From: Amylibacter sp. | GTDB lineage: Bacteria > Pseudomonadota > Alphaproteobacteria > Rhodobacterales > Rhodobacteraceae | DNA: 64,000 bases | Direction: 5' to 3' | Assembly: GCA_029252725.1 (NCBI GenBank) | Contig: JAQXAV010000052.1 | Coordinates: forward strand, 23,081 to 87,080 | Shown: positions 1,253 to 19,451 of the stretch, one piece after another | How positions within the stretch are numbered: the first letter of the stretch is position 1 | Layout of the letters: each line of letters begins with the position of its first letter | Translations under genes and position numbers: made by a program | Notes under the pieces: model-generated | The model's input: only the letters and a program-made list of their open reading frames with translations | The model's database searches: none | Told to the model about the DNA's origin: nothing

Positions 1253-1927
1253 CTATTCGTCACCAGGTACGCCATAAGACGGCGCAGCACGCGGGTCGAG
1301 CGCACGTTTCACGTAATCTGCCATCTGCGGCTTGTATACGTCCCACGCGGCAGAAATTGCTTTTATCGGGCAGCCTTCAGTCCAATCACATCGCAAATCC
1401 GCGCTAGGCCATTGCACATCATCACAAATCTGCATTCCTGCTGAATGAAGTGGTCCAGCTTCACCGCCCTCTGCAAGACCAGCCTGCATCGCAGCAATTA
1501 GGCGATCTCCAATGTGACCAGTGGCAGCTTCAAATTCCTTAACAATCGCTTGTGGCACACGGTCATTCGCCAGCAAATTACCTGCAGACAACACATCTTT
1601 TCCATGCGCTTCTGCCCAAATACCAAGAGAGTTCGGACCAGAATGAATGGCGGTATTACCCACCTTATCTATCGCTAAAACTTGGCGATATTCGAGAAAA
1701 GGCGCTTGGTCTTTGACACCTGCGATTGCCTCCTGCGCGGACATGCCTCCTTGAATTAGATCAAGCGCAAAGGGGCCAAGCCGTGGATCAGTTATATTTT
1801 GACTTGCAACCGCACCCACACTCGAGCGCGTATATGCACAGCGCGCGGCAACAGCGGGAGATGACGATGAAATCGCTATTCCAAACATGCCTGTTTTCAC
1901 GCAACGCGCCACCAATGAAAAAGTCAT
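1253..1927 (-). CDS. DUF1028 family protein (Ntn-hydrolase-like)
   Basis: N-terminus MTFSLVARC..GMFGIAISSSSPAVAARC, plus ASQNITDPRLG, GNLLA and GGEAGPLHSAG motifs. ATG at 1927 overlaps the upstream stop (ATGA). Confidence 0.85.
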   Translation of the reverse strand: MTFSLVARCVKTGMFGIAISSSSPAVAARCAYTRSSVGAVASQNITDPRLGPFALDLIQGGMSAQEAIAGVKDQAPFLEYRQVLAIDKVGNTAIHSGPNSLGIWAEAHGKDVLSAGNLLANDRVPQAIVKEFEAATGHIGDRLIAAMQAGLAEGGEAGPLHSAGMQICDDVQWPSADLRCDWTEGCPIKAISAAWDVYKPQMADYVKRALDPRAAPSYGVPGDE

Positions 1928-2337
1928 GGGATCACAGCCGTACCATCGATTTCGACCAACCATTCGGGCCGTGCAAGCGCTTGTACCACCAGCCCCGTAG
2001 ATACAGGATGCACCTCTTTGATGTATTCGCCAATGGTACGATAGATCACCTCTCGGTGGCGCACATCAGTGATGTAGACAACAATTTTAACAAGGTGCTC
2101 CATCTCACCACCCGCTTCTTTGATCAACTGACGGATGTTCTGCATCACTTTATGAGTTTGTTCCGCAGGGTCATGGCTGTCGATGTTCACAGCATCGTCC
2201 AAATTTTGTGGACATTGACCGCGCAGATAGACTGTTTTGCCACCCTGCGTGACAACAGCCTGACACAAATCATTATCAAGTTTCTGTTCCGGATAGGTCG
2301 CCGCAGTATTGAATTTGCGAATGCGAGTATGTGCCAT
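1924..2337 (-). CDS. Rid (YjgF/YER057c/UK114) family protein
   Basis: 137 aa with LVKIVVYITD and PVSTGLVVQALARPEWLVEIDGTAV motifs. Confidence 0.85.
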   Translation of the reverse strand: MAHTRIRKFNTAATYPEQKLDNDLCQAVVTQGGKTVYLRGQCPQNLDDAVNIDSHDPAEQTHKVMQNIRQLIKEAGGEMEHLVKIVVYITDVRHREVIYRTIGEYIKEVHPVSTGLVVQALARPEWLVEIDGTAVIP

Positions 2338-7363: not shown

Positions 7364-7771
7364 TTAATAGTGAATATTGCCTTCTTCGTCGTGTATAATC
7401 GCATCCACATCGATTTCTACCATCATACCAGGCTGAGTTAGTCCTGCCTCAACACCCGTCATCACAGGATCAATGCCCTTAAATACCTCCCCATGGGCTT
7501 TCACCAAACCCCCTGCAGCCGACATATCTGTGATATATGCCCTAGTCCGCACGACGTGGCGCATCTCTGCCCCCACTTCGCGCAATGCTCCTTCAATGCG
7601 GTCAAGGATGTAAACGCTTTGCGCGTAACAGTCGTTAGGTGCATGCAGTTTACCACTCGGCTCAATCGCTGTAGTCCCAGCGATATAAACAAATGGCCCG
7701 ACGCGTTTCGCACGAGAATAGCTACCGATCTCTTCAAATCGTCCACCCGAATTCCACCTACGAAGTGTCAT
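7364..7771 (-). CDS. Rid (YjgF) family protein, last gene of the BMC operon
   Basis: GYS-like GSYSRAKRVGPFVYIAGTTA, VVRTRAYITD, MMVEIDVDA. ATGA overlap with the mdh-like gene. Confidence 0.85.
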   Translation of the reverse strand: MTLRRWNSGGRFEEIGSYSRAKRVGPFVYIAGTTAIEPSGKLHAPNDCYAQSVYILDRIEGALREVGAEMRHVVRTRAYITDMSAAGGLVKAHGEVFKGIDPVMTGVEAGLTQPGMMVEIDVDAIIHDEEGNIHY

Positions 7772-8946
7772 AGGCCAAGCCGCGTGCGAATAGCCTCGGC
7801 CGCGCTGTGCAAAGCGTTGGTTTCATCAGGTGTAAGTCGTATTTCCTCTACGCTTACCAACCCTGTAGCACCCAGATGCGCAGGCACACCTAGCACCACG
7901 CCAGACATACCATATTCACCTTGGAGCATCACTGAAACAGGCACGGGGCCCACCTTTGCGCCGCGAATGTGATCCATTAATTCAACCGAAGAATGCGCGG
8001 GAGCTATCGTGGCTGAACCTGACTTCTTAATCGCAACAACCTGTCCACCCCCCGTGATCGCGTCCTGTACGCAACCCGAAATTTGTTCATCGGATAAAAA
8101 CCGCTCCAACCGCCGTCCTTTAATGCGCGCCAATGACGTAATTGGAGCCATTTCATCCCCGTGACTGCCTAATGTGATCGCAGACACATCATCAGGCGTT
8201 ACACCGGCCGCCATTGCCAACGCATTGCGGAAACGCGAACTGTCAAGCGTCCCTGCCATCCCAAGAACCCGTTCGCGCGGGAACCCTGTAGCCCGAAGCA
8301 TTTCAACCGTCATCTCATCAAGCGGATTGGTAACAACAATCACTATTGCATCGGGCGCAGAAGTTTTAATAGCCTCTCCAGCTGAGTGAATAACCCGTGT
8401 GTTTACATCAATCAGATCAGCCCGCGTCATACCGGGACTTCGGGCACGACCTGCAGTCACGACAACTAGATCAGCCCCTGCAACCAACGTCAAATCTTCG
8501 CCGCCCACACACCGCGCCTTTACACCCGTAATACCACTAGCGTGGTTGAGGTCGAGCGCTAAAGCCTCTGCCATTCCGGGTGCTATATCAATCAGTGAGA
8601 TCTCTTCCGCCATATCCGCAATGGCTGCTAGATGCGCGATATTACCACCAACACCGCCAGCACCAACCAGCGCAATCTTAGAAAACCGCCGAGCGGTACG
8701 TTTGACAATAGCCCTCGGCGCAACCCATTTTGGCGAACGCCGAAAGAGCCCCCGCCGCATTGCTGTTCGACCATCCGTCCTTACCACTGCTGGTTTTTCG
8801 AGCGGCCCTTCGACCAGCTTGATTCCCAATCTCGCAGCTGTTTCACGCGCTAAGTCTGTAACAATATCGCTCGGCAAAACTTCAAAGACAATGCGGCTGT
8901 GTTTTCGCGCATCCTCAATATGTTCTGACCCTACGATGCGTGACAT
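7768..8946 (-). CDS. Malate dehydrogenase (LDH-like MDH) with about 88-aa N-terminal extension
   Basis: KIALVGAGGVG Rossmann motif, TAGRARSPGMTR (Arg at the MDH specificity position), VTNPLD, LDSSRFR, GSHGD catalytic motifs intact. Confidence 0.85.
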   Translation of the reverse strand: MSRIVGSEHIEDARKHSRIVFEVLPSDIVTDLARETAARLGIKLVEGPLEKPAVVRTDGRTAMRRGLFRRSPKWVAPRAIVKRTARRFSKIALVGAGGVGGNIAHLAAIADMAEEISLIDIAPGMAEALALDLNHASGITGVKARCVGGEDLTLVAGADLVVVTAGRARSPGMTRADLIDVNTRVIHSAGEAIKTSAPDAIVIVVTNPLDEMTVEMLRATGFPRERVLGMAGTLDSSRFRNALAMAAGVTPDDVSAITLGSHGDEMAPITSLARIKGRRLERFLSDEQISGCVQDAITGGGQVVAIKKSGSATIAPAHSSVELMDHIRGAKVGPVPVSVMLQGEYGMSGVVLGVPAHLGATGLVSVEEIRLTPDETNALHSAAEAIRTRLGL

Positions 8947-9569
8947 TATTCTGTCCGTCCATCCACTGATTCAATCGCTTTAGTCGCCGCCTGAACAGCA
9001 GTTTGAACAGAGTCTTCCGACCCAGAAATAAATAATCGGCCAAACCGACCAACCGCACGAACTTCGACCATATCGATTTCGGCAGACTTCTCAGCCTCAT
9101 TTGCCGCAATTGAAATATAAGCCGCGGGAGCACATTCGATAATCCCCAGGGTTTGTCCTGGAACCAAAAGCGAACCCTTGCGCCACTTGTTCAATAGCTG
9201 CGCCTGATACGGCTCTACGCTTGTGATAATTTGCGTGTTTGTGATTGCTGGCTTCAACCGATCCGCCATTGTTGCACCCAGTTCTGAGAGCATTGCATCC
9301 CGAGCTGCAGTCACCTCAGCGTTACTCGGCGAGCGCAGAATAAAAAAGCCAAACTCCCGCTCCACCATTTGTGTCGTCGCCTCGACCGAGGAAGCCTTCA
9401 AAGCACGGTCGATCAGCGAAAAAACTCCGTTGCCTGGCGCAAATTCACCAATTAGCACAGTATCACCCGACAAAGGCACGGAACCCTGAACAGTAGCACC
9501 GTTATATGCGGCGAATTTTGGCTGTAAATTGTCGATCTGCATTAGCGCGCGAATTGTAATGTCACTCAT
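8946..9569 (-). CDS. BMC shell protein, tandem permuted BMC-T (CcmP/CsoS1D-like, BMC-Tdp type)
   Basis: 207 aa; IDNLQPKFAAY..G, E.APG, ALKASSV, VEREFG in domain 1; G..LGIIECAPAAY...AANEAEKSAEI..VEVRAVGRFGRLFISG in domain 2. Confidence 0.85.
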   Translation of the reverse strand: MSDITIRALMQIDNLQPKFAAYNGATVQGSVPLSGDTVLIGEFAPGNGVFSLIDRALKASSVEATTQMVEREFGFFILRSPSNAEVTAARDAMLSELGATMADRLKPAITNTQIITSVEPYQAQLLNKWRKGSLLVPGQTLGIIECAPAAYISIAANEAEKSAEIDMVEVRAVGRFGRLFISGSEDSVQTAVQAATKAIESVDGRTE

Positions 9570-10945
9570 TCGCCATACTCCTCATAGATATCGCGCCAAG
9601 GGCGGTTTTCATAGGCCACACGCTTGATATTGATCAGGTGCAGTGCTGTAACGTTGTCCGATGTGATACTGCCAGACCATGTGCCAGTGCCAAGCATAAA
9701 GGACGGTTCCAAATCAGTTGAATAACCCATGCCACCCAAAATCGCTGGTGTATTCACAAGGACGCGGCCCGTGGGCACCGCCGCAAACTGAGCCACGATT
9801 TCTGGATCGTTTGAGTGCAAGCAGGCTGAGTGGCCCCAGCCCTCAAACTTTGCAATATTAATCGACATCTCAATGCCATGCTGGCTGTCACGCACCTCAT
9901 AGAAGGCTAAAACAGGATTCAACTTTTCTGCACTAAGCGGACGATGCCAACCAATTTCGGTCTCCTCAGACACCAAACAACGCGTTTTGGGCGGAATCGA
10001 AAACCCAGCAGCGTCCGCTAATGCTTGTGGGCTTTGCCCAACACGCTCTGCATTCATCGCTTGCTTACCCATAAAGATTACTTTGGATAAACGGTCACTT
10101 TCCGCAAGGGTGCAGAAATACGCTCCACGCATCTTCATTTCTTGGCGCAACTCACGCGCAATCTCGGGATCGGCTATTACCGCTTGTTCCGAAACACAGG
10201 CAGTACCGTAGTCAAAACACTTGGAGGTTACGATCATCTCAGCAACTTCGCCGATCTCACCACCCTTCGATTTATGAACATAACAGGGTACGTTGCCTGC
10301 ACCAACAGCCAACGTCGGCTTACCACTTGAATAGGCCGCCTTTACCATCGCAGGGCCACCCGTCGCCATAACAACTGATGTGCGGCGGTGACTCATCAAT
10401 TCGGCCGTGCCTGCAATGGTCACTTGGTCTAAACACTGAATCAAACCCTTCGGCGCACCCATTTGTTCAGCTGCGTCCGCCATCACCTTGATTGTCGCCA
10501 TCCCACACTTAATGCCACGCGGATGTGGCGCACAAACAATTGCATTGCCTGCCTTCACTGCCGACAGTACCTTAAAAATAATCGTCGAAGTCGGGTTCGT
10601 AACTGGTATTAATGCTGCCACAACGCCCATAGGCTCGCCAAACGCCGCAACCTTCGTCGCATCATCACGCCACAACATTCCAAGCGTCGTCACATCACGT
10701 AGAAAATCCGCAACCGAAAGCGCGTTAAACAAATTCTTAAGCCGCTTATCAGGCACGTTCCCGTATCCTGTTTCTTCAACGGCCAGTGCGGCCAGCTCTT
10801 TGGCAACAGGTTCAATTGCCCGTGCCATCGAATCGACAATTGCATCTACATGCGCAGGGTCCGTGCCAAGAAATTTTTGATACGCCGTAAAAGCCGTTTC
10901 CGCGGTTCGCCGTGCAGCTGCAATGGATTTAAGATCATCGTCCAT
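9566..10945 (-). CDS. CoA-acylating aldehyde dehydrogenase (EutE/PduP family)
   Basis: PMGVVAALIPVTNPTST, ATGGPAMVKAAYSSGKP, catalytic SKCFDYGTACVSEQ, EKLNPVL, GHSACLHS, GTGTWSGSITSDN. Confidence 0.9.
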   Translation of the reverse strand: MDDDLKSIAAARRTAETAFTAYQKFLGTDPAHVDAIVDSMARAIEPVAKELAALAVEETGYGNVPDKRLKNLFNALSVADFLRDVTTLGMLWRDDATKVAAFGEPMGVVAALIPVTNPTSTIIFKVLSAVKAGNAIVCAPHPRGIKCGMATIKVMADAAEQMGAPKGLIQCLDQVTIAGTAELMSHRRTSVVMATGGPAMVKAAYSSGKPTLAVGAGNVPCYVHKSKGGEIGEVAEMIVTSKCFDYGTACVSEQAVIADPEIARELRQEMKMRGAYFCTLAESDRLSKVIFMGKQAMNAERVGQSPQALADAAGFSIPPKTRCLVSEETEIGWHRPLSAEKLNPVLAFYEVRDSQHGIEMSINIAKFEGWGHSACLHSNDPEIVAQFAAVPTGRVLVNTPAILGGMGYSTDLEPSFMLGTGTWSGSITSDNVTALHLINIKRVAYENRPWRDIYEEYGE

Positions 10946-10946
10946 A

Positions 10947-12134
10947 TCAACTTCCTCCCTTGGCTATTGCGTCCATGGCGGATCGCGCCGTGTCTATATC
11001 TTTGGCGGTAATCCCAATAGTATCAAGCCGCCGTCCCGCTGCCGCAACATCTGCACCCAAAATGGCACTCGCCAGCGTAATCATCGATTGCGTCACAGGC
11101 AGTTCAATCCCTGCCAGCTTTCCAGCTGACATAAGCGGCACGAGCGAGCCAATAACTCCATCACGCAACAATGCCTTAGCACCATCTTGATCCGGCACAG
11201 GCCTTTTAGCCTCTCCCTTTACAACACCGGCATGGGTTTCAATCAAAGTTTTCACACCCGCCAATCCACGGACACCAAAGGCTTTCGCAACAGACATCCG
11301 TTCTTTTGTCAATTGTTCGATTATATTGCGCTGTTCGATACCAATCAGAGCAGCAAAGTTCTGATTCTCCGCCAAAGGCGCCCCGCCCATGGGCACAGGC
11401 ACTGCGCCTGAACCCAGTGCCGGACCACTCATCAACAACGCGGGAAACTCTACCAGAGCAGATCCATCTGCGAAGCCAGATGTTAGGACACTGTCACAAG
11501 CTTCTAAATTTGGAAGGTATTTGGCCAAACCTTCCAAAACATCATCCCGACCACTTGGTAGAGTTGCGGCAGCTACAGGTCCGCACGGAGATAAGTTTAA
11601 AACCGCACCCTCTGCCTTAACAAAAAACGGCAAACCTTGCGCTTCGACAATCGTTATATCTGCAGTACAGCCACCAATACGTAAAAACCAAGCAGTTTCA
11701 AGTGCGCCCAACGATCGACCAGGGGCCAAAACCAAAACCTGCCCATCAGACAGATGATCAGCCAATACCATCGCGTAGGTGCGTTGCTTGTGTACAGGCC
11801 CCGTCAGGTAAATCACGTCTGCTTCTCTAACGGACGCATCTAGTTCCGCCGTTGTTTGGATGGACGGCGACGTACGATCTACCTGATAAGTGCCAACTGG
11901 CCCAGCGCCGCGCAGAGAGACACCGCTCGACGAGCGCAATGCCTCCAGTTCGGACCCATAGGCTGAAAAGAGTGAGACTTTCGCCCCTTCAGCCAGGCTC
12001 AGCGCCGCAATAAGCCTCGCATCTTCACCGCCACCCAGCACTGAGATACGGTCATAGGACGGCACGTTTCTTGACTTTTTGGACGCAGACGAGCTTGAAG
12101 CCGCATCCGCGAATTCTGCAAACGCATTGGTCAT
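10947..12134 (-). CDS. NAD/NADP octopine/nopaline (opine) dehydrogenase family homologue with degenerate motifs
   Basis: Family-like layout (ISVLGGG, A.V..ADVIYLTGP, GQVLVLAPG, GSLVPLMSAGKLAGIELPVTQSMITLASAILG.D....GRRLDTIG), but GGGEDA replaces GxGxxG and the expected NxxxHP and RYxxED motifs are missing. Confidence 0.75.
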   Translation of the reverse strand: MTNAFAEFADAASSSSASKKSRNVPSYDRISVLGGGEDARLIAALSLAEGAKVSLFSAYGSELEALRSSSGVSLRGAGPVGTYQVDRTSPSIQTTAELDASVREADVIYLTGPVHKQRTYAMVLADHLSDGQVLVLAPGRSLGALETAWFLRIGGCTADITIVEAQGLPFFVKAEGAVLNLSPCGPVAAATLPSGRDDVLEGLAKYLPNLEACDSVLTSGFADGSALVEFPALLMSGPALGSGAVPVPMGGAPLAENQNFAALIGIEQRNIIEQLTKERMSVAKAFGVRGLAGVKTLIETHAGVVKGEAKRPVPDQDGAKALLRDGVIGSLVPLMSAGKLAGIELPVTQSMITLASAILGADVAAAGRRLDTIGITAKDIDTARSAMDAIAKGGS

Positions 12135-12163: not shown

Positions 12164-12460
12164 CTAACCAGCAATGCCTTCAAGAATGGCTTCCAGTTCA
12201 TCATGTGGGCGTGCGATCACATGGACAGACACCACTTCACCAACCTTGTTAGCTGCTGTCGCACCCGCGTCTGTTGCCGCCTTTACCGCGCCGACTTCGC
12301 CACGAACGAGCGTTGTTACCAACCCACCGCCCGCTTTTGTTTGTGCAACAATCGCAACGCTTGCTGCTTTGACCATCGCATCAGCCGCTTCAATAGAAGC
12401 GACCAAGCCACGTGTTTCGATCATACCTAGAGCCGATTGGCCCGCTGCTGGTTTCGCCAT
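12164..12460 (-). CDS. BMC shell hexamer protein (BMC-H, EutM/PduA-like)
   Basis: [60 protein letters not shown]. Confidence 0.95.
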
Positions 12461-12484: not shown

Positions 12485-12754
12485 TTATTTTGCGAGGGCG
12501 ACTTTATCCACCACCGCGACAATTGTTGCATCTACGGGCGAACCCGCGCTTCCAGCCGCCATACGAGCCGCTGATCCTGTAGTAATAAGCACGGTGTCTC
12601 CAACGCCTGCACCCACCGTATCCGTGGCTACTTGTGCCTCTGATAAAACGCCACCAACGCCATCGGTGATGTCACACAGAAGCAAGGTCGCCCCAACTAG
12701 CTGTGTATCTTTGGCGGTGGCCGTGACCGTCCCAACAACGCGAGCTAGTTTCAT
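12485..12754 (-). CDS. BMC shell pentamer/vertex protein (BMC-P, EutN/CcmL family)
   Basis: MKLARVVGTVTATAKDTQLVG, VATDTVGAGVGDTVLITTGSAAR, PVDATIVAVVD. Confidence 0.95.
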   Translation of the reverse strand: MKLARVVGTVTATAKDTQLVGATLLLCDITDGVGGVLSEAQVATDTVGAGVGDTVLITTGSAARMAAGSAGSPVDATIVAVVDKVALAK

Positions 12755-14061
12755 CAGAAGTTCCCCAGATAACGGTCAAGTTCGATCTGTGTAACTTGGT
12801 TGTTGATAAACTCATTATAAAAATTCAATTCCCGCTCGCACATTTGCAAATAGATTTCCCACTGTGTTTCTCCCATAACGTCCTTGAGCCACGCAGACCC
12901 GCGGGCAAGATCAATTGCAGTGCCTAAATCCGTTGGGATCGGAGCTGCACGTTGAGATTCATAAGCATTGCCCAGCTCACATTCATCGGGCTCTATACTC
13001 TGCTCAATACCATCCAAACCCGCTGCAATATCAGCAGCCAGTAACAAATATGGATTAGCATCTGCACCCGCGTCACGCTTTTCGATCCGTGTGGCTGTGT
13101 TAGACCCTTGAATCACGCGCAAACCGACAGTGCGGTTGTCCAATCCCCAAGCTGTGTTGATCGGACAAAACGTGTAAGGCTGACGGCGACGGTACCCGTT
13201 CACTGTAGCAGAACCACAAACAGACGCTTCCGCCATCCGCTTTTGCAAACCACCCAAAAAATGTCGGCCCATCTCACTCAACTCACCCTTATTTGCGAAG
13301 ACGTTCTTACCGTTTTCCCAAACTGAATAATGCGTATGGAACCCATTGCCACTCTCCTCAAAGAATGGCTTTGCCATAAAGGTCGCCTTGTAATCGTGCG
13401 CAGATGCCAGCTGCTTTACCAAAGTGCGGAATTCAACCGCACGATCTGCAGACAACATTGCTTCGCCGTAACGTATATTCACCTCAACCTGGCCGGCCGC
13501 ATACTCCGGATTAGACTGCTCGATTGGGATACCGTACTCATTAATTTGTTGGCGGATCGGACCAAGCACATGCTCTAACTCCGCTGAACGATCAAGACCA
13601 TAAACACCGATCCCCCGGTCTTTTGGCAAATTTGTTTCGGGGTCAAGCAGATAGAATTCGAGTTCCGTACCAACTTGTACCTGAAAGCCCATCTTTTCCG
13701 CACGCGTCAACTGTCGTTTCAAAACGTTGCGCGGATCAATCGGTAATTCGCTGTGATCCATTGCTTCAGAACGCCCCATGCACATCGCCACACCCGGCTC
13801 CCAAGGCAACTCTACAGGTTGTGTCATCGGAAACATGTGAAAATCAGGGTAGCCATTGTCAAAGTTCACATAGGGTGTGTCCCAGACATCGCATGTCATA
13901 TCGATCGCGAACAAAGCGATAGAATAAGCATTTCCGTTCTTACAAATATTGTCCCAATGAGTTGCAGGGATGCGCTTTCCACGCATTATTCCACACATAT
14001 CTCCTAAACCCATTACAACAGTATGCGTTCCCTCTGGTAATTTAAAGCTTTGATTAGACAC
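12754..14061 (-). CDS. Glutamine synthetase family gamma-glutamylamide ligase (PuuA/PauA-like), first gene of the BMC operon
   Basis: D..GIMRGKRIP, ELEFYLL, EYAAGQVEVNI, SGNGFHTHYSVW, WGLDNRTVGLR, RIEKRDAGADANPY. The GS glutamate-flap 'EAP' is replaced by 'FCP'. GTG start with GGGAG upstream; TGATG overlap with the BMC-P gene. Confidence 0.85.
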   Translation of the reverse strand: MSNQSFKLPEGTHTVVMGLGDMCGIMRGKRIPATHWDNICKNGNAYSIALFAIDMTCDVWDTPYVNFDNGYPDFHMFPMTQPVELPWEPGVAMCMGRSEAMDHSELPIDPRNVLKRQLTRAEKMGFQVQVGTELEFYLLDPETNLPKDRGIGVYGLDRSAELEHVLGPIRQQINEYGIPIEQSNPEYAAGQVEVNIRYGEAMLSADRAVEFRTLVKQLASAHDYKATFMAKPFFEESGNGFHTHYSVWENGKNVFANKGELSEMGRHFLGGLQKRMAEASVCGSATVNGYRRRQPYTFCPINTAWGLDNRTVGLRVIQGSNTATRIEKRDAGADANPYLLLAADIAAGLDGIEQSIEPDECELGNAYESQRAAPIPTDLGTAIDLARGSAWLKDVMGETQWEIYLQMCERELNFYNEFINNQVTQIELDRYLGNF

Positions 14062-14147: not shown

Positions 14148-15290
14148 ATGTCGAAAGCTAACATTATAATAGTCGGTGGGGGAATAGCTGGCGCCATGAC
14201 CGCGCTAAACCTCCAACGCAATGGCGAGCGTGTGACTCTCATCGATCGATGGGAGCCCGGTCATCCCCGTGCTGCCTCGACCGACTATAACCGCGTTATC
14301 CGCGCCATCTCCGGTCGTGATGAATTCTACACTAGATGGGCACGCGAAAGCCGCACGCGCTGGCTGGAACTTCAAACTGAGACTGGCCAGAAACTAATGT
14401 ATGAATGTGGCGCTCTTATCCTCGCCACTAGGGGCCACTGTGACTGGGAAGACGCCACCGCTACCACCTTCGACCGTGTTGGTGTCCCCTACTACAAACT
14501 CAGCAAAGAGGAAGTGCAACAACGTTTTCCACAATTCAAAGTGGACGAAATCGAATACGCCTTGTTTGAACCTGAAGCCGGCCTCCTCATGGCGCACCGC
14601 TGTGTAATCACCGCCATTGACCTATTCAAGAAACTTGGCGGCACGGTCAAACGCGAAATCGTCACAACAGACGCAACCGAACGCCCAATGGTTAACGGAA
14701 AGCCGCTAGAGGCAGACGTGATAATCGTTGCTACAGGCGCTTGGATGGCAGAAATGTTTCCAAAAACAATCAAACCAATCAGTGCAATAATGGGAATAAA
14801 CGTGCTTTACACTTCTACCCCTGACGGATCCGATGCGTTCGACATGGATAACATGCCTTGCTGGATCGATCATGGCCAAGGTTCATTCGGCATCCCAAGT
14901 TCGGAGGGATCAGGCGTCAAAGCCGCCGTTGTTATTCCAAACACACCTATCGATATTAACAACGACGAACGTTTGATCGAAAAACAATCGCTCAACAAAA
15001 CCCGCCAATATATACGTCACCGACTCCCGGGCCTTGAAGGACAACGCATTGTGGACAGTAAATTTAATCAAGTCATCTTAACGCCCGACACACATTTTAT
15101 CGTCGACTGGCATCCCAAACATAAAAACGTCCTGCTCGCTGGCGGTTGTTCGGGACACCTGTTCAAACACGGCCCAATCTTTGGCGAATTTACTGCTGGG
15201 GTTGCCATGAAAAACTATGGCACAGCCGACCGTTTCAAAATCGCGGGCCGCCGCAAACTCTCTCCTAAGGAGAGCCCAAGTGGACGTTAA
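14148..15290 (+). CDS. FAD-dependent amine oxidase, monomeric sarcosine oxidase / N-methyl-amino-acid oxidase family
   Basis: IIIVGGGIAG FAD motif, AASTDYNRVIR, TPDTHFIVDWHP, GCSGHLFK. Confidence 0.8.
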   Translation: MSKANIIIVGGGIAGAMTALNLQRNGERVTLIDRWEPGHPRAASTDYNRVIRAISGRDEFYTRWARESRTRWLELQTETGQKLMYECGALILATRGHCDWEDATATTFDRVGVPYYKLSKEEVQQRFPQFKVDEIEYALFEPEAGLLMAHRCVITAIDLFKKLGGTVKREIVTTDATERPMVNGKPLEADVIIVATGAWMAEMFPKTIKPISAIMGINVLYTSTPDGSDAFDMDNMPCWIDHGQGSFGIPSSEGSGVKAAVVIPNTPIDINNDERLIEKQSLNKTRQYIRHRLPGLEGQRIVDSKFNQVILTPDTHFIVDWHPKHKNVLLAGGCSGHLFKHGPIFGEFTAGVAMKNYGTADRFKIAGRRKLSPKESPSGR

Positions 15291-15563: not shown

Positions 15564-16271
15564 TTATAGATTAGCCGCGTGCACGCGAAAGAATTTGGCT
15601 ACTTTTTCAGTCATTAAATCAGCTTTCACGTCTCCTGCGTCAAAGCTGGCCAGGGCGGCTGCCATTTCCGCATCGTTCGGAAAACCTGACTGGCCTTGCG
15701 CACGCGCAAACACATCCGAAATGTGCTTCTTCGTATGTTCGGGATGAAATTGGACACTGGCAGCTGGAAAGTCATATTCTAACGCACCCACTGGACAGTA
15801 ATCCGCTATCCCCGTGACCTTAGCATTTGGGGGCACTTGGGTGACCTGATCCTGGTGCCACACATGCGCGTCCACCTCAATACCATTGAGATCAAATTGA
15901 CGCACGCCAACAACGTTGCCACCCAAAGTCTTTTCAGCCTTACCTCCAAACGTATCTGCCATGATCTGATGCCCAAAACAAATTCCGAAGATCGGCTTAC
16001 CCACCACTTTGGTGTTCCGTAACAATTGGCGCAGCGGCTCCATCCACGGCGTATCATCGTAAACACCAAACTCTGACCCAGTCAGCAACAGTCCATCAAA
16101 CGTATCCAGTCGCGGCATGGGCGCGCCACCCTCCGCCACATCAATCCGCGCAAATTCCGCATCAGACATCGCAGGTGCGATCCACTCGACAGTTTGCTCC
16201 CCAACGCTGGGTAATCCCTCCAACATTGGAACTGGATGTCGTGTCAGATCGAGAACGGCAATTCTCACCAC
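15564..16271 (-). CDS. Class I glutamine amidotransferase (possible gamma-glutamyl hydrolase)
   Basis: LTGS, nucleophile elbow GICFGHQ, WHQDQV, QFHPE catalytic His-Glu. Confidence 0.85.
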   Translation of the reverse strand: MVRIAVLDLTRHPVPMLEGLPSVGEQTVEWIAPAMSDAEFARIDVAEGGAPMPRLDTFDGLLLTGSEFGVYDDTPWMEPLRQLLRNTKVVGKPIFGICFGHQIMADTFGGKAEKTLGGNVVGVRQFDLNGIEVDAHVWHQDQVTQVPPNAKVTGIADYCPVGALEYDFPAASVQFHPEHTKKHISDVFARAQGQSGFPNDAEMAAALASFDAGDVKADLMTEKVAKFFRVHAANL

Positions 16272-17689
16272 TCATAGGCCCTATCAATTCCAGCCATCTT
16301 CACCCCCGTAAAAGCAGAAGCTTCAAAAGACAATGCACGCAGATCTTCAACCTCTAAGTTATGTACCGATGATTTACCACATGCCTTAGCCAATGCCGTG
16401 ATTTCCATCGTCATCGCTGTCAGATACCGCGCCACACGTTCGGCACCCGCGTGGGGGTCCATGCGCTTCTCCAACTCTGGATCTTGCGTTGCCACGCCAA
16501 CTGGACACATCCCTGTATGACAGTGGTGACAAGCCCCTGGAGATGTGCCAAGCTTCGCGTAATCTTCTAAATAACGGGGCGAATTACAGCCCATTGCGAT
16601 CATCGCCGCATTTCCAATCATTACCGCATCTGCGCCCAAGGCGATCGCCTTGGCCGCATCGACACCTGATCGAATACCGCCCGCCGCAACAAGCGACACC
16701 TTATCCGACATCCCACATTCATCCAGACTTTCTCGCGCTGCACGAATGGCCGACATATTCGGAATACCTGTATGGTTAAGCAGAAGTTCAGGCGACGCAC
16801 CAGTGCCGCCTTCCGCCCCATCTACCACGATAATATCAGCACCAGCCTTTGCCGCAACCGCCACATCGAACCGTGGACGCGTTGCACCCATCTTTATGGA
16901 AATTGGCACCTTATAGTTGGTCGCAATCCGCAGCTCTTCAATTTTTACAGCCAGATCATCGGCACCAAGGAAGTCTGGGTGTCGAATTGTCGACCGCTGA
17001 TCCACGCCTTCAGGCAAAGTGCGCATCTTTGATACGCGCGGGGACACTTTCATCCCAAGCAGCAAGCCACCCGTTCCAGGCTTTGCGCCCTGCCCTACAA
17101 CAATCTCGAGCCCATCCGCGCGACGCAGATGTTCCAGATCAATTCCATATCGGGCGGGTGACATTTGATAAACAAGCCTCTGCGAAGCCTCCCGCTCCTC
17201 TTCGAGCATCCCACCTTCACCCGTGCAGGTCATTGTTCCAACTTTGGATGCACCGTAACCTAACGAAGCTTTTGCAGATGCAGACAATGCACCAAAAGAC
17301 ATCGACGCGATATAGATTGGAATTTTTAGTTCGAGCGGATTTTCAACAATCCCACGTCCACCACCTAAAATGGTTGTTGTATCACACTTCTCGCGGTAGC
17401 CTTCTAACGGTAACCGCGTCATCGTTGCGGGCACAAACGTCAGGTCATCGAAAGTTGGCATCCGTTTATTAAAGGAATTATAGCCACGCACCTGATAACG
17501 CCCCAGCTGAGCTAATGCATGCACTTCCGAAATCGCTTCGGGTGTCCAGCGAGCTGAACCACCTTCGTCATAAGATGCGGGAACACCTGCTGGACGACCT
17601 TCTACAGCACCCGCATCTTTAAATCGAATTTCATCCTCGGGCGGCAGCTCGAATGGATAATCATATGGTTTGCTTAGATCATGAGCCAT
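16265..17689 (-). CDS. FMN-binding glutamate synthase domain protein (N-methylglutamate synthase subunit C, MgsC/GlxD-like)
   Basis: MSFGALS, TGEGG, GQGAKPGTGG, DGAEGGTGA, GGIRSG.D, Fe-S motif CHHCHTGMCPVGVATQD. Confidence 0.85.
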   Translation of the reverse strand: MAHDLSKPYDYPFELPPEDEIRFKDAGAVEGRPAGVPASYDEGGSARWTPEAISEVHALAQLGRYQVRGYNSFNKRMPTFDDLTFVPATMTRLPLEGYREKCDTTTILGGGRGIVENPLELKIPIYIASMSFGALSASAKASLGYGASKVGTMTCTGEGGMLEEEREASQRLVYQMSPARYGIDLEHLRRADGLEIVVGQGAKPGTGGLLLGMKVSPRVSKMRTLPEGVDQRSTIRHPDFLGADDLAVKIEELRIATNYKVPISIKMGATRPRFDVAVAAKAGADIIVVDGAEGGTGASPELLLNHTGIPNMSAIRAARESLDECGMSDKVSLVAAGGIRSGVDAAKAIALGADAVMIGNAAMIAMGCNSPRYLEDYAKLGTSPGACHHCHTGMCPVGVATQDPELEKRMDPHAGAERVARYLTAMTMEITALAKACGKSSVHNLEVEDLRALSFEASAFTGVKMAGIDRAYEW

Positions 17690-18366
17690 GCGCTTGCGTC
17701 CCTGCTTTCAAAATACCATAGGCGCTGGCCGGATACCAGTTTACGCCATTCCCGTGATGTGTCCACCAAGCCCAAAGGATCCAAAATAGTGTCCACTTCT
17801 GCAACTTCTTCAGCTGTAGGCTCAACTGCATGGGCATCCACGCCCAAACTTTCAATTTCGCCCGCAACCCAAATCTCACCTTCCCACAAGGCATCAGCGC
17901 AGCTTTCACCCGCACCACCCAGCGCAATGATCTTACCGCTATGGGACATAAATCCAGACTGGTACCCAATCTTGCCTTCAACCACAATATTGCCGCCCTT
18001 CATGGCGACCCCAACGCGCGGTCCTGCATCACCTTTGACGTGAATCGTCCCGCCCATCATGGCCGCACCACAGGACATGCCTGCGTAGCCACCCACGGTG
18101 ATGTGCCCTTTGGACATTCCCTCACCACAGGCCCAGCCAGCATTGCGTTCTATATCGATGGTCGCACCCACATTGAGCCCTCCACAGTAATATCCTGTGG
18201 AGCCTTCAAAACTAATTTTACATCCATCGGGCAATCCAATGCCAAGGTTGTGACGTGACAATGTATTGACCACACGGACTACCTTATCTGAGGCCGCAGC
18301 ATCCTGGATTTCCTCATTAATTTCTTTTATGTGACGCTTACCAACCTCGATGATATGTTCGCTCAT
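17674..18366 (-). CDS. Glutamate synthase GXGXG domain protein (MgsB/GlxC-like)
   Basis: GSTGYYCGG, GWACGEGMSKG, repeated G-x-A-G beta-helix units; sits between the GATase II and FMN-domain genes. Confidence 0.85.
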   Translation of the reverse strand: MSEHIIEVGKRHIKEINEEIQDAAASDKVVRVVNTLSRHNLGIGLPDGCKISFEGSTGYYCGGLNVGATIDIERNAGWACGEGMSKGHITVGGYAGMSCGAAMMGGTIHVKGDAGPRVGVAMKGGNIVVEGKIGYQSGFMSHSGKIIALGGAGESCADALWEGEIWVAGEIESLGVDAHAVEPTAEEVAEVDTILDPLGLVDTSREWRKLVSGQRLWYFESRDASAWLMI

Positions 18367-19307
18367 GCTGCTATGCTCCGATTGTTAACACCCCACAGCC
18401 CAGTCAAAGACGGTCCGTCATGGTTGATCACATCACACTCATTGCTGAATACACGGCGCACGGCTTGTTCTTCAGTTGCCATTGCTAAATCACCATTTTG
18501 GTCTATCACAACTAACGGCTTCATCGCGAAGCGGTCTTTGGCAAAGCCAACCCCTTCTGTATTCGCAATCATGTAGGTAAAAACTCCATCAATGCTGCTA
18601 ATAGATTTTCTGAGCGCCTGTTCCATACTAAGTCCTGCTTTAATCTGGTCACTAACCCAAACTGCAATTAGCTCGCTGTCGTTCTCGGTTAGGAAGCGGT
18701 AACCTCGACGCTCCAGCTTATCCCGCCACGTATAATAATCTGTGATCTGGCCATTGTGGACAATCGCTACATCACTAAATGGACGCGCCCAAAACGGATG
18801 ACTTGCATTGGGCAGCACGCTAGACTCAGTCGCCAATCGCGCATGTCCTAAACCGTGCGTCCCTTGCATATCATGAACGCCGTGCTTGTCCGCCACTTCG
18901 GCAGAGCCACCCATGTCCTTGATGATCTCAAGTGAGCGCCCACAAGATTGAATTTCAATCCGATCCGTCAACTCATCCGCATCAGCAATCCAAGCGGCCA
19001 GATCGTTGGGATCTTTGATTTCCATACGAAAACAGTAGTGTTTATTAGCATCTTGAACAATCTTTGGCTCAGACAGTAAATCACTACCATTATCACGCAG
19101 AATGTTTGTAAAATCAGCCAAATCGGCATCCATCTGCATCTTACTAAACCCTATTCCCCTCAACACATATCCCACATCGCGCGGTGGGCCATAAATTGCA
19201 AACCCTGTGCTATCGGCTCCACGGTGTTCCTGTGCATCCATTAAGTCGACTAAATCACGGCCAACAGCGCCAACGCCCTGCATTATTCGTCCTGCAATTC
19301 CACACAT
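18363..19307 (-). CDS. Class II glutamine amidotransferase (MgsA/GlxB-like)
   Basis: Start MCGIAG (Cys2 nucleophile), HRGADSTG, GHARLATES, HPF, VHNGQITDY, ENDSE, GFAKDRFAMKP. Confidence 0.85.
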   Translation of the reverse strand: MCGIAGRIMQGVGAVGRDLVDLMDAQEHRGADSTGFAIYGPPRDVGYVLRGIGFSKMQMDADLADFTNILRDNGSDLLSEPKIVQDANKHYCFRMEIKDPNDLAAWIADADELTDRIEIQSCGRSLEIIKDMGGSAEVADKHGVHDMQGTHGLGHARLATESSVLPNASHPFWARPFSDVAIVHNGQITDYYTWRDKLERRGYRFLTENDSELIAVWVSDQIKAGLSMEQALRKSISSIDGVFTYMIANTEGVGFAKDRFAMKPLVVIDQNGDLAMATEEQAVRRVFSNECDVINHDGPSLTGLWGVNNRSIAA

Positions 19308-19327
19308 AAACAGACCCTCCACTTTCA

Positions 19328-19344
19328 TTGTATACTGTATACAG
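19328..19344. promoter_or_regulatory. Putative GntR/FadR-type operator between mgsA-like and gntR genes
   Basis: TTGTATACTGTATACAG; a further CTGTATACG copy lies at 19418-19426. Confidence 0.65.
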
Positions 19345-19451
19345 CCCAATAAAACAGGCAAGGAGAAAATGAGCGCTTGTGACACAGGGGTTTCGCTTGC
19401 CAGTGTATTTGTGGATTCTGTATACGGTTAAAAGGAAATAAAGGACCAAGC

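Follow-up and report, generated by a model that had tools for sequence, protein, structure and literature searches.

The window analysed here is a stretch of 64,000 nucleotides from Amylibacter sp. (contig JAQXAV010000052.1, positions 23,081 to 87,080, forward strand). On its minus strand, at 10947-12134, it encodes a 395-residue protein with the fold of an opine dehydrogenase (ODH), referred to here as the OpDH-like protein, within a bacterial microcompartment (BMC) operon of the MIC2 type. Comparison across the family shows that this protein descends from a microcompartment-associated opine-type dehydrogenase, intact today in actinobacterial MIC2-like loci, and that the catalytic His-Asp dyad has become dispensable in the lineage carrying an MSOX/MTOX-type flavoprotein, usually together with RidA. 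From the residues that have been replaced, we consider with high confidence that the canonical opine-dehydrogenase reaction would be beyond the protein. With high confidence, too, we regard it as a predicted peptide-tagged, conserved core component of MIC2 and a candidate shell cargo. The function that we favour, at somewhat less than even chances and from sequence and gene context, is that of a non-redox adaptor or ligand binder serving as a shell-targeted core cargo of the MIC2 metabolosome.

The homology to opine dehydrogenases, proposed in a preliminary description of the locus, is secure by Pfam, phmmer and Foldseek comparison with the Arthrobacter enzyme CENDH (also ArODH; PDB 1BG6), and the open reading frame called at 10947-12134 is real. 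The Pfam model Octopine_DH (PF02317) matches the helical domain alone, scoring 31.4 bits where the cut-off is 30, and no NCBIfam model matches the protein. phmmer aligns residues 31-386 with CENDH (E=2.8e-16), and the family profile matches CENDH at 3.7e-112. The AlphaFold model, made with 74 sequences, has a pLDDT of 91.7 and a pTM of 0.89. The top Foldseek match is 1bg6 (E=6e-22, TM 0.74/0.83); octopine dehydrogenase (OcDH) ranks next, followed by staphylopine-type dehydrogenases and ketopantoate reductases. AlphaFold, Foldseek and Pfam together give a two-domain fold, with an N-terminal Rossmann domain and the helical Octopine_DH domain.

The His-Asp dyad is conserved in ODHs from any organism (PMC10787698) and forms a proton relay, His202/Asp297 in CENDH and His212/Asp329 in OcDH. 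Motifs were mapped in CENDH numbering, and three independent alignments agree; all features of the OpDH-like gene lie on the minus strand. The earlier readings that both catalytic motifs, N.NxxxHP and RYxxED, have been replaced are correct in all three. The former N.NxxxHP helix is now GFADGSALVEFP (residues 220-231, 11442-11477), in which N196 has become D223, N198 has become S225, and the catalytic H202 is replaced by E229. The former RYxxED is ALLRDG (residues 321-326, 11157-11174), with R292 replaced by A321, Y293 by L322, E296 by D325 and D297 by G326. Neither member of the dyad is therefore present, as E229 and G326 occupy the two positions; the nearest acid is D325, one place earlier at 296. 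The domain-II arginine is also missing. In OcDH this residue, Arg324 (equivalent to CENDH Arg292), is the 'NADH sensor' that binds the pyrophosphate of NADH (PMC2924402); here it aligns with A321, the most variable active-site column (entropy 2.78), and a conserved arginine, R324, lies three residues further on. A shift of the catalytic residues does not account for the loss. Domain II has no conserved histidine. H115 is conserved, but it belongs to the Rossmann domain, where it precedes the canonical H88 position by three residues. D325, although conserved, sits beside the lost D297 and does not restore the pair. H115 opens the invariant HKQRTY (residues 115-120, 11775-11792), which follows β4 in place of the canonical xxH88 loop; the TYA of this segment is common to the intact BMC-type relatives.

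The cofactor loop is altered less than the preliminary description had it. The CENDH loop G11-x-G13-x-G15-G16 corresponds to G34-G35-G36-E37-D38-A39 (12018-12035), and the statement that VLGGGEDA stands in place of GxGxxG was too strong, because G34-x-G36-x-x-A39 is GxGxxA and the Ala-ending form is an accepted variant (PMC10787698). What is genuinely odd is the acidic residue at position 38. In the ortholog set (n=120, 63-97% identity) this position is Asp in 116 and Glu in 4, whereas canonical and intact relatives have Gly. The second glycine of the loop (G36) is Q, S or K in 4/120 orthologues, and is not Gly in 6/28 cluster representatives of the protein's own subclade; the corresponding counts are 1/55 for the remaining MIC2 subclades (p=0.005) and 0/97 for the intact proteins (p=8e-5). 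The PG motif (P109/G110), otherwise 100% conserved, is loosened in the same subclade. The adenosine-side motif at the end of β2, LFSxYxxEL (LFSAYGSEL in the OpDH-like protein), is as in intact relatives and is invariant in the orthologues. Arg140 (11715-11717), likewise invariant, is equivalent to ArODH position 111, the determinant of acidic amino-acid preference (PMC10787698).

The replacements themselves are conserved, as the preliminary description would lead one to ask. There are 86 near-invariant positions in the 120 orthologues, among them D38, F56-S-A-Y-G60, H115-K-Q-R-T-Y120, R140, D223, S225, E229, R311, R324, G326 and S330; residue 229 is Glu in 119 and Asp in one. Of the 11 active-site positions mapped, seven show no variation. 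The ArODH active-site columns have a mean entropy of 0.635 against 0.946 for random core positions, a difference that is not significant (P=0.14) because the equivalents of R292, Y293, K156 and Y259 vary. More than 600 homologues have an intact frame. The dN/dS ratio (Nei-Gojobori, NG86) comes to 0.07 in comparison with the closest relatives, its median for pairs with dS < 1.5 is 0.25, and these values indicate purifying selection; the comparison values are 0.125 for the aldehyde dehydrogenase (AldDH) of the operon, 0.16 for GS, 0.17 for LDH and 0.315 for the shell protein BMC-P. Essential residues have been lost, then, and the gene is retained under purifying selection, with constraint relaxed about 3-fold relative to intact relatives.

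The family was sampled with an exhaustive profile-free search, two further homologue searches and a tree. Ordinary ODHs, with H202, R292 and D297, form the first layer. The second, the P0177/P0334 type, is a large and mostly actinobacterial family associated with BMCs (Acidimicrobiia and other Actinomycetota), in which G11, G13, G16, S34, P109, R111, H202 and D296 are each present in 97/97 sequences, G110 in 96/97 and H88 in 95/97, position 297 is Glu or Asp in 96%, and the R292 position is already Asn or His. The N-terminus of these proteins is a classic amphipathic targeting helix. This helix, together with Ser34, F/Y36, E39, TYA, PGR111, ExQ and D296, is common to the OpDH-like protein; His202 and GxGxxG, both 97/97, and the acid at 297 are what set the intact proteins apart from it. 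The third layer is a clade (SH-like support 98-99) that holds the OpDH-like protein and all other MIC2 proteins linked to the flavoprotein, a FAD amine oxidoreductase (DAO). Within it, residue 202 is Glu or Asp in the protein's own subclade; Nocardioides and its relatives, an actinobacterial-type subclade, have G, A, T, S, N, Y, H or R there, and elsewhere the residue is Asp or Asn. With the trait columns left out of the tree, the 84 rows of this clade require at least 26 changes of state at residue 202, against 3 in the 39 other rows; Arg111 changes 3 times in the clade and 13 times in the others. One further candidate, an OpDH-AldDH fusion from a metagenome (P0199, 630 residues), was discarded as a frameshift-ridden call with an Arg/Pro/Ser-rich out-of-frame middle.

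Gene content follows the state of the protein. The intact-type loci, four complete (L090-L093) and one partial (L089), carry the MgsABC, GS, shell and AldDH genes and usually LDH/MDH, and have the module of MgsABC, GS, BMC-P/H, AldDH, BMC-T and LDH/MDH in common with the window. Neither DAO nor RidA is found within 10 kb in any of these five. Among loci of the His-labile clade 82/84 have DAO, against 0/4 complete intact-type loci (Fisher p=6e-6). A simple rule that His is present where DAO is absent is broken by P0160 and P0208, in which His is kept and DAO is present. Because of these His-bearing loci we place the gain of DAO first and the repeated loss of His after it. In the likely course of events an encapsulated, active opine-type dehydrogenase came first, the flavoprotein was gained next, usually with RidA, and the catalytic His was then lost repeatedly. 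The ratio of OpDH to AldDH distances is 2.26 in query-type loci, those like the window's, and 0.73 in intact-type loci, where OpDH evolves more slowly than AldDH; the OpDH-like protein is thus about 3 times faster relative to AldDH, on 15 non-independent pairs whose divergence ranges differ. The proposal that the protein has been repurposed is supported by this acceleration and by the lability of residue 202 across the flavoprotein-linked BMC clade.

The N-terminus carries the candidate targeting signal. Residues 3-14, NAFAEFADAASS (12093-12128), are predicted to be helical by AlphaFold and are amphipathic (hydrophobic moment μH 1.41 against 0.64 for shuffles, P=0.009), and all 120 orthologues have F5 and F8. 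A low-complexity Ser/Lys-rich linker follows (residues 15-28, 12051-12092), poorly conserved and with a pLDDT of about 65; the alignment with CENDH begins after it, at about residue 29-31. A short terminal amphipathic helix, a poorly conserved linker and an operon of shell genes are the features expected of an encapsulation peptide, and a helical encapsulation peptide of about 10 residues has already been predicted on the MIC2 '6-PGDH-like protein' (Sutter et al. 2021, Suppl. Data 2). The amphipathic stretch and Ser-rich linker noticed earlier are thus borne out as a conserved, predicted encapsulation-peptide-like element. The same cannot be said of the C-terminus, also put forward as an amphipathic extension: in the alignment, helix 380-392 matches CENDH's own closing helix as far as the end of that enzyme at residue 359, so there is no terminal extension and this helix, the fold's own, is a poor candidate. 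That AldDH has no obvious terminal extension is confirmed by sequence comparison and by the same supplementary data. AldDH extensions do not separate the two locus types, being present only in L093. There the AldDH (L093:11459-12955) has a C-terminal tail of about 40 residues with an encapsulation-peptide-like amphipathic helix, PRRVIEDLVQHALERF; the other MIC2-type AldDHs examined have no extension.

We favour the adaptor or ligand-binding role because the dyad and the arginine sensor are lost, the pyrophosphate site has gained an acidic residue, loss of a key glycine is tolerated, and the protein evolves faster, while the flavoprotein, a constant neighbour, would be able to oxidise N-alkyl amino acids and RidA to hydrolyse the imine. 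The OpDH-like protein would have lost the ability to cleave an N-alkyl acidic amino acid oxidatively, a step that the flavoprotein and RidA would have taken over. It may have been kept for its N-terminal encapsulation peptide and for a remodelled cleft (Arg140, Asp223, Ser225, Glu229, His115-Tyr120 and Arg324/Asp325) that could still bind a glutamate-like ligand or a partner protein. In the lumen it would then act as an adaptor, for example by loading the peptide-less AldDH, or the substrate, into the shell.

Several observations weigh against this. The protein keeps G34, G36, A39, P138-G139-R140 and E164-x-Q166, and LFSAYGSEL is retained as in intact relatives, as expected if a nucleotide still binds. 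The replacement of His is strictly acidic in its subclade (Glu 119/120, Asp 1/120), so an acid/base role is possible, and the invariance of 7/11 active-site positions fits catalysis as well as binding. In a neighbouring MIC2 subclade, where position 202 is Gly or Ala, the GxGxxG is fully preserved, and this suggests that an NAD(P)-dependent function may persist without the His. The correlation with DAO depends on four complete intact-type loci, and DAO could sit elsewhere in those genomes. The term pseudo-enzyme, used in the preliminary description, therefore holds for the loss of the dyad and the arginine sensor; it need not hold for catalytic death, as the invariant cleft and LFSxYxxEL would allow an altered enzyme.

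Such an altered enzyme, an active NAD(P)-dependent oxidoreductase working in the lumen as a secondary-amine or imine dehydrogenase, is a serious possibility, although we think it on balance doubtful. It would interconvert N-alkyl-glutamate and imine with NAD(P)+, or carry out the reductive amination of an aldehyde with glutamate; Glu229/Asp325 would stand in for the His-Asp relay and Arg324 for the arginine sensor, one helical turn later, and RidA would hydrolyse the imine. In imine reductases the place of the proton donor can be taken by Asp, Tyr, Asn or other residues, and position 202 is acidic throughout the subclade, where R324 is present in 120/120. GxGxxA, P138-G139-R140, E164-x-Q166 and S57/Y59/E62 are kept from the intact relatives and invariant in the subclade, and the His-less sister MIC2 subclades retain the full GxGxxG. 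Arg111 is conserved across the clade and matches the acidic-preferring ODHs (PMC10787698). The cofactor site speaks less well for this activity. Asp38 lies where the pyrophosphate would meet the helix N-terminus, several orthologues have Q, K, S, N or D for the second glycine of the loop, the PG motif has loosened, and the arginine-sensor column is the most variable of the active site (entropy 2.78). The 3-fold faster evolution relative to AldDH and the flavoprotein, always adjoining and capable of this oxidation, also count against it.

If the cofactor were no longer used, the protein might have acquired a new, cofactor-independent activity in the lumen, such as hydrolysis of an imine, N-alkylidene-glutamate, that the flavoprotein would produce; the aldehyde would then be freed only inside the shell. 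The old substrate cleft does hold a conserved group of acids and bases, D223, E229, D325, R140, R311, R324, H115, K116 and Y120, the constraint on the cofactor loop is relaxed, and the flavoprotein has no predicted targeting helix. We nevertheless think this unlikely: the proposal is purely inferential, the RidA of the same operon already supplies imine hydrolysis, and we know of no precedent in the opine-dehydrogenase family. Also improbable, in our estimate, is a cofactor-independent lumenal 'release' module, arising once amine oxidation had passed to the flavoprotein, in which Arg140 and the acidic cluster would capture N-alkylidene- or N-alkyl-glutamate, followed by imine hydrolysis or by docking of the flavoprotein or AldDH. 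Were this so, a pseudo-dehydrogenase would be the gatekeeper of the metabolosome, with the aldehyde first appearing inside the shell. Finally, a decaying pseudogene or mis-called frame, for which one could cite the lost catalytic residues and a Pfam score barely over threshold, is refuted by the intact frame in more than 600 homologues, synteny at 80/80 loci and dN/dS of 0.07-0.25, as well as by the 86 near-invariant positions and the confident model, in keeping with the earlier opinion that the gene is not decaying.

The OpDH-like gene is the fourth in an operon ordered GS-like, BMC-P, BMC-H, OpDH-like, AldDH, BMC-T, LDH/MDH-like and RidA, all on the minus strand. The first gene encodes a GS-family gamma-glutamyl ligase (12754-14061), followed by the shell genes BMC-P (EutN/CcmL; 12485-12754) and BMC-H (12164-12460). 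The latter lies directly upstream of the OpDH-like gene, and the acylating AldDH, without terminal extension (9566-10945), lies downstream, so the gene is indeed placed between shell and AldDH genes as first described. Then come a BMC-T shell gene of the double-stacking type (8946-9569), an LDH/MDH-family protein with an N-terminal arm of about 88 residues (7768-8946) and the RidA-family imine/enamine deaminase (7364-7771). The OpDH-like gene starts with ATG, 9 nt downstream of a ribosome-binding site, GAAGGGA. One base separates its TGA stop from the ATG of AldDH (10946-10950), and the Shine-Dalgarno sequence of AldDH, AAGGGAGGAAG (10950-10965), lies inside its last four codons (KGGS), which points to tight translational coupling of the two genes. 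Divergently transcribed on the plus strand is the MSOX/MTOX-type DAO gene (14148-15290), and an MgsABC-like trio (GATase-II, GXGXG and FMN glutamate-synthase domain; 16265-19385, minus strand) is the probable maker of N-alkylglutamate. The C-terminal codons of the DAO gene encode a tail (…RRKLSPKESPSGR), and conservation of its last residues exceeds 95% in about 77 orthologous loci. The tail is not helical-amphipathic, and it raises the question of docking to a partner. A second RidA-family gene (1253-2337, minus strand) overlaps a DUF1028 gene downstream of a Liv-type ABC transporter and is present in 24/80 related loci.

A scan with one genome per species found 80 such loci, with the gene order of the window wherever the contig allowed. 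OpDH and BMC-H are present in all 80, GS in 79, DAO in 78, AldDH in 77, BMC-T in 74, LDH in 71 and RidA in 70. In the family of the window, 6/151 genomes have the OpDH-like gene, and the same 6 carry a MIC2-type BMC-T about 2 kb away. By its gene content the locus is a MIC2 metabolosome as described by Sutter and colleagues (2021, Nat Commun 12:3809), one of the types for which the literature gives no substrate, signature enzyme or route of NAD+ recycling (Sutter 2021; PNAS 2024, PMC11626177).

The invariant neighbours of the OpDH-like gene are the basis on which we propose a pathway. An amine would be converted to the gamma-glutamyl-amide by the GS-like ligase and then to N-alkylglutamate by the MgsABC-like proteins; cleavage would give aldehyde and glutamate, and AldDH would turn the aldehyde into acyl-CoA inside the shell. 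The aldehyde-forming step would belong to the intact OpDH in the actinobacterial loci and to DAO with RidA in the window. The MDH-like protein is a candidate for recycling NAD+. In a related BMC locus, L085 (3797-5715; P0177 type), the LDH/MDH gene is replaced by genes for an RnfC/Complex1_51K-like Fe-S flavoprotein and, after it, a 183-residue BMC-domain protein. This is the module that recycles NAD+ by exporting electrons (PNAS 2024), and the MIC2 MDH-like protein, whose place is taken here by the RnfC-like module, therefore probably fills the same slot. In the intact-type actinobacterial locus L092 (12385-14846), two cytochrome P450 genes directly follow the OpDH gene; the pair recalls the gamma-glutamyl/P450 isopropylamine (ipu) pathway and may hint at the class of amine substrate.

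Recognition of a '6-PGDH-like' protein as an opine-type dehydrogenase gives MIC2 a concrete, testable amine pathway via N-alkylated glutamate: the protein is intact in actinobacterial loci that lack DAO, and MgsABC-like and gamma-glutamyl-ligase genes are always its neighbours. If our reading is right, the proteobacterial version is a cargo enzyme that lost catalysis after the flavoprotein and RidA arrived and was kept as a component bearing the encapsulation peptide, which bears on the loading of peptide-less cargo and on how synthetic microcompartments might be designed.

Both the MIC2 locus type and its targeting peptide have been published before. Suppl. Data 2 of Sutter et al. 2021 lists for MIC2 a protein of the '6-phosphogluconate dehydrogenase-like superfamily', which is the OpDH-like protein of the window, and the remaining content is the same: AldDH, a pfam02866 LDH/MDH protein with a EutQ-like arm, GS, one each of BMC-H and BMC-P, and a single BMC-Tdp. 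There, too, the predicted helical encapsulation peptide is at the N-terminus of the '6-PGDH-like' protein and AldDH has none. The opine-dehydrogenase assignment is absent from the catalogue, as are the missing catalytic residues, the actinobacterial versions that are still intact and the association with neighbouring flavoprotein/RidA and MgsABC-like genes; among the papers searched, none combines 'bacterial microcompartment' with 'opine dehydrogenase'. The family assignment, the catalytic-residue loss, the intact relatives and the connection with the gain of flavoprotein and RidA thus appear to be new. Metagenomic ODHs (mODH-582 and others) share with the OpDH-like protein an Arg at 111 and a small residue at 198, a pairing that experiments have shown to confer a preference for acidic (Asp/Glu-type) substrates (PMC10787698); unlike it, they are catalytically intact, cytosolic and not linked to BMCs. 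With CENDH and octopine dehydrogenase (PDB 3C7A) the protein has in common the two-domain fold, the formal GxGxxG/A pattern of the loop, P84, PG109-110, E134 and the C-terminal GR motif. It differs in having Glu for His202, Gly for Asp297 and a variable residue, here Ala, for Arg292; N196, N198, N209, E214, D238 and Y263 are replaced as well. To the common fold it adds the acidic residue in the Gly loop, an N-terminal targeting extension of 28 residues and a microcompartment operon.

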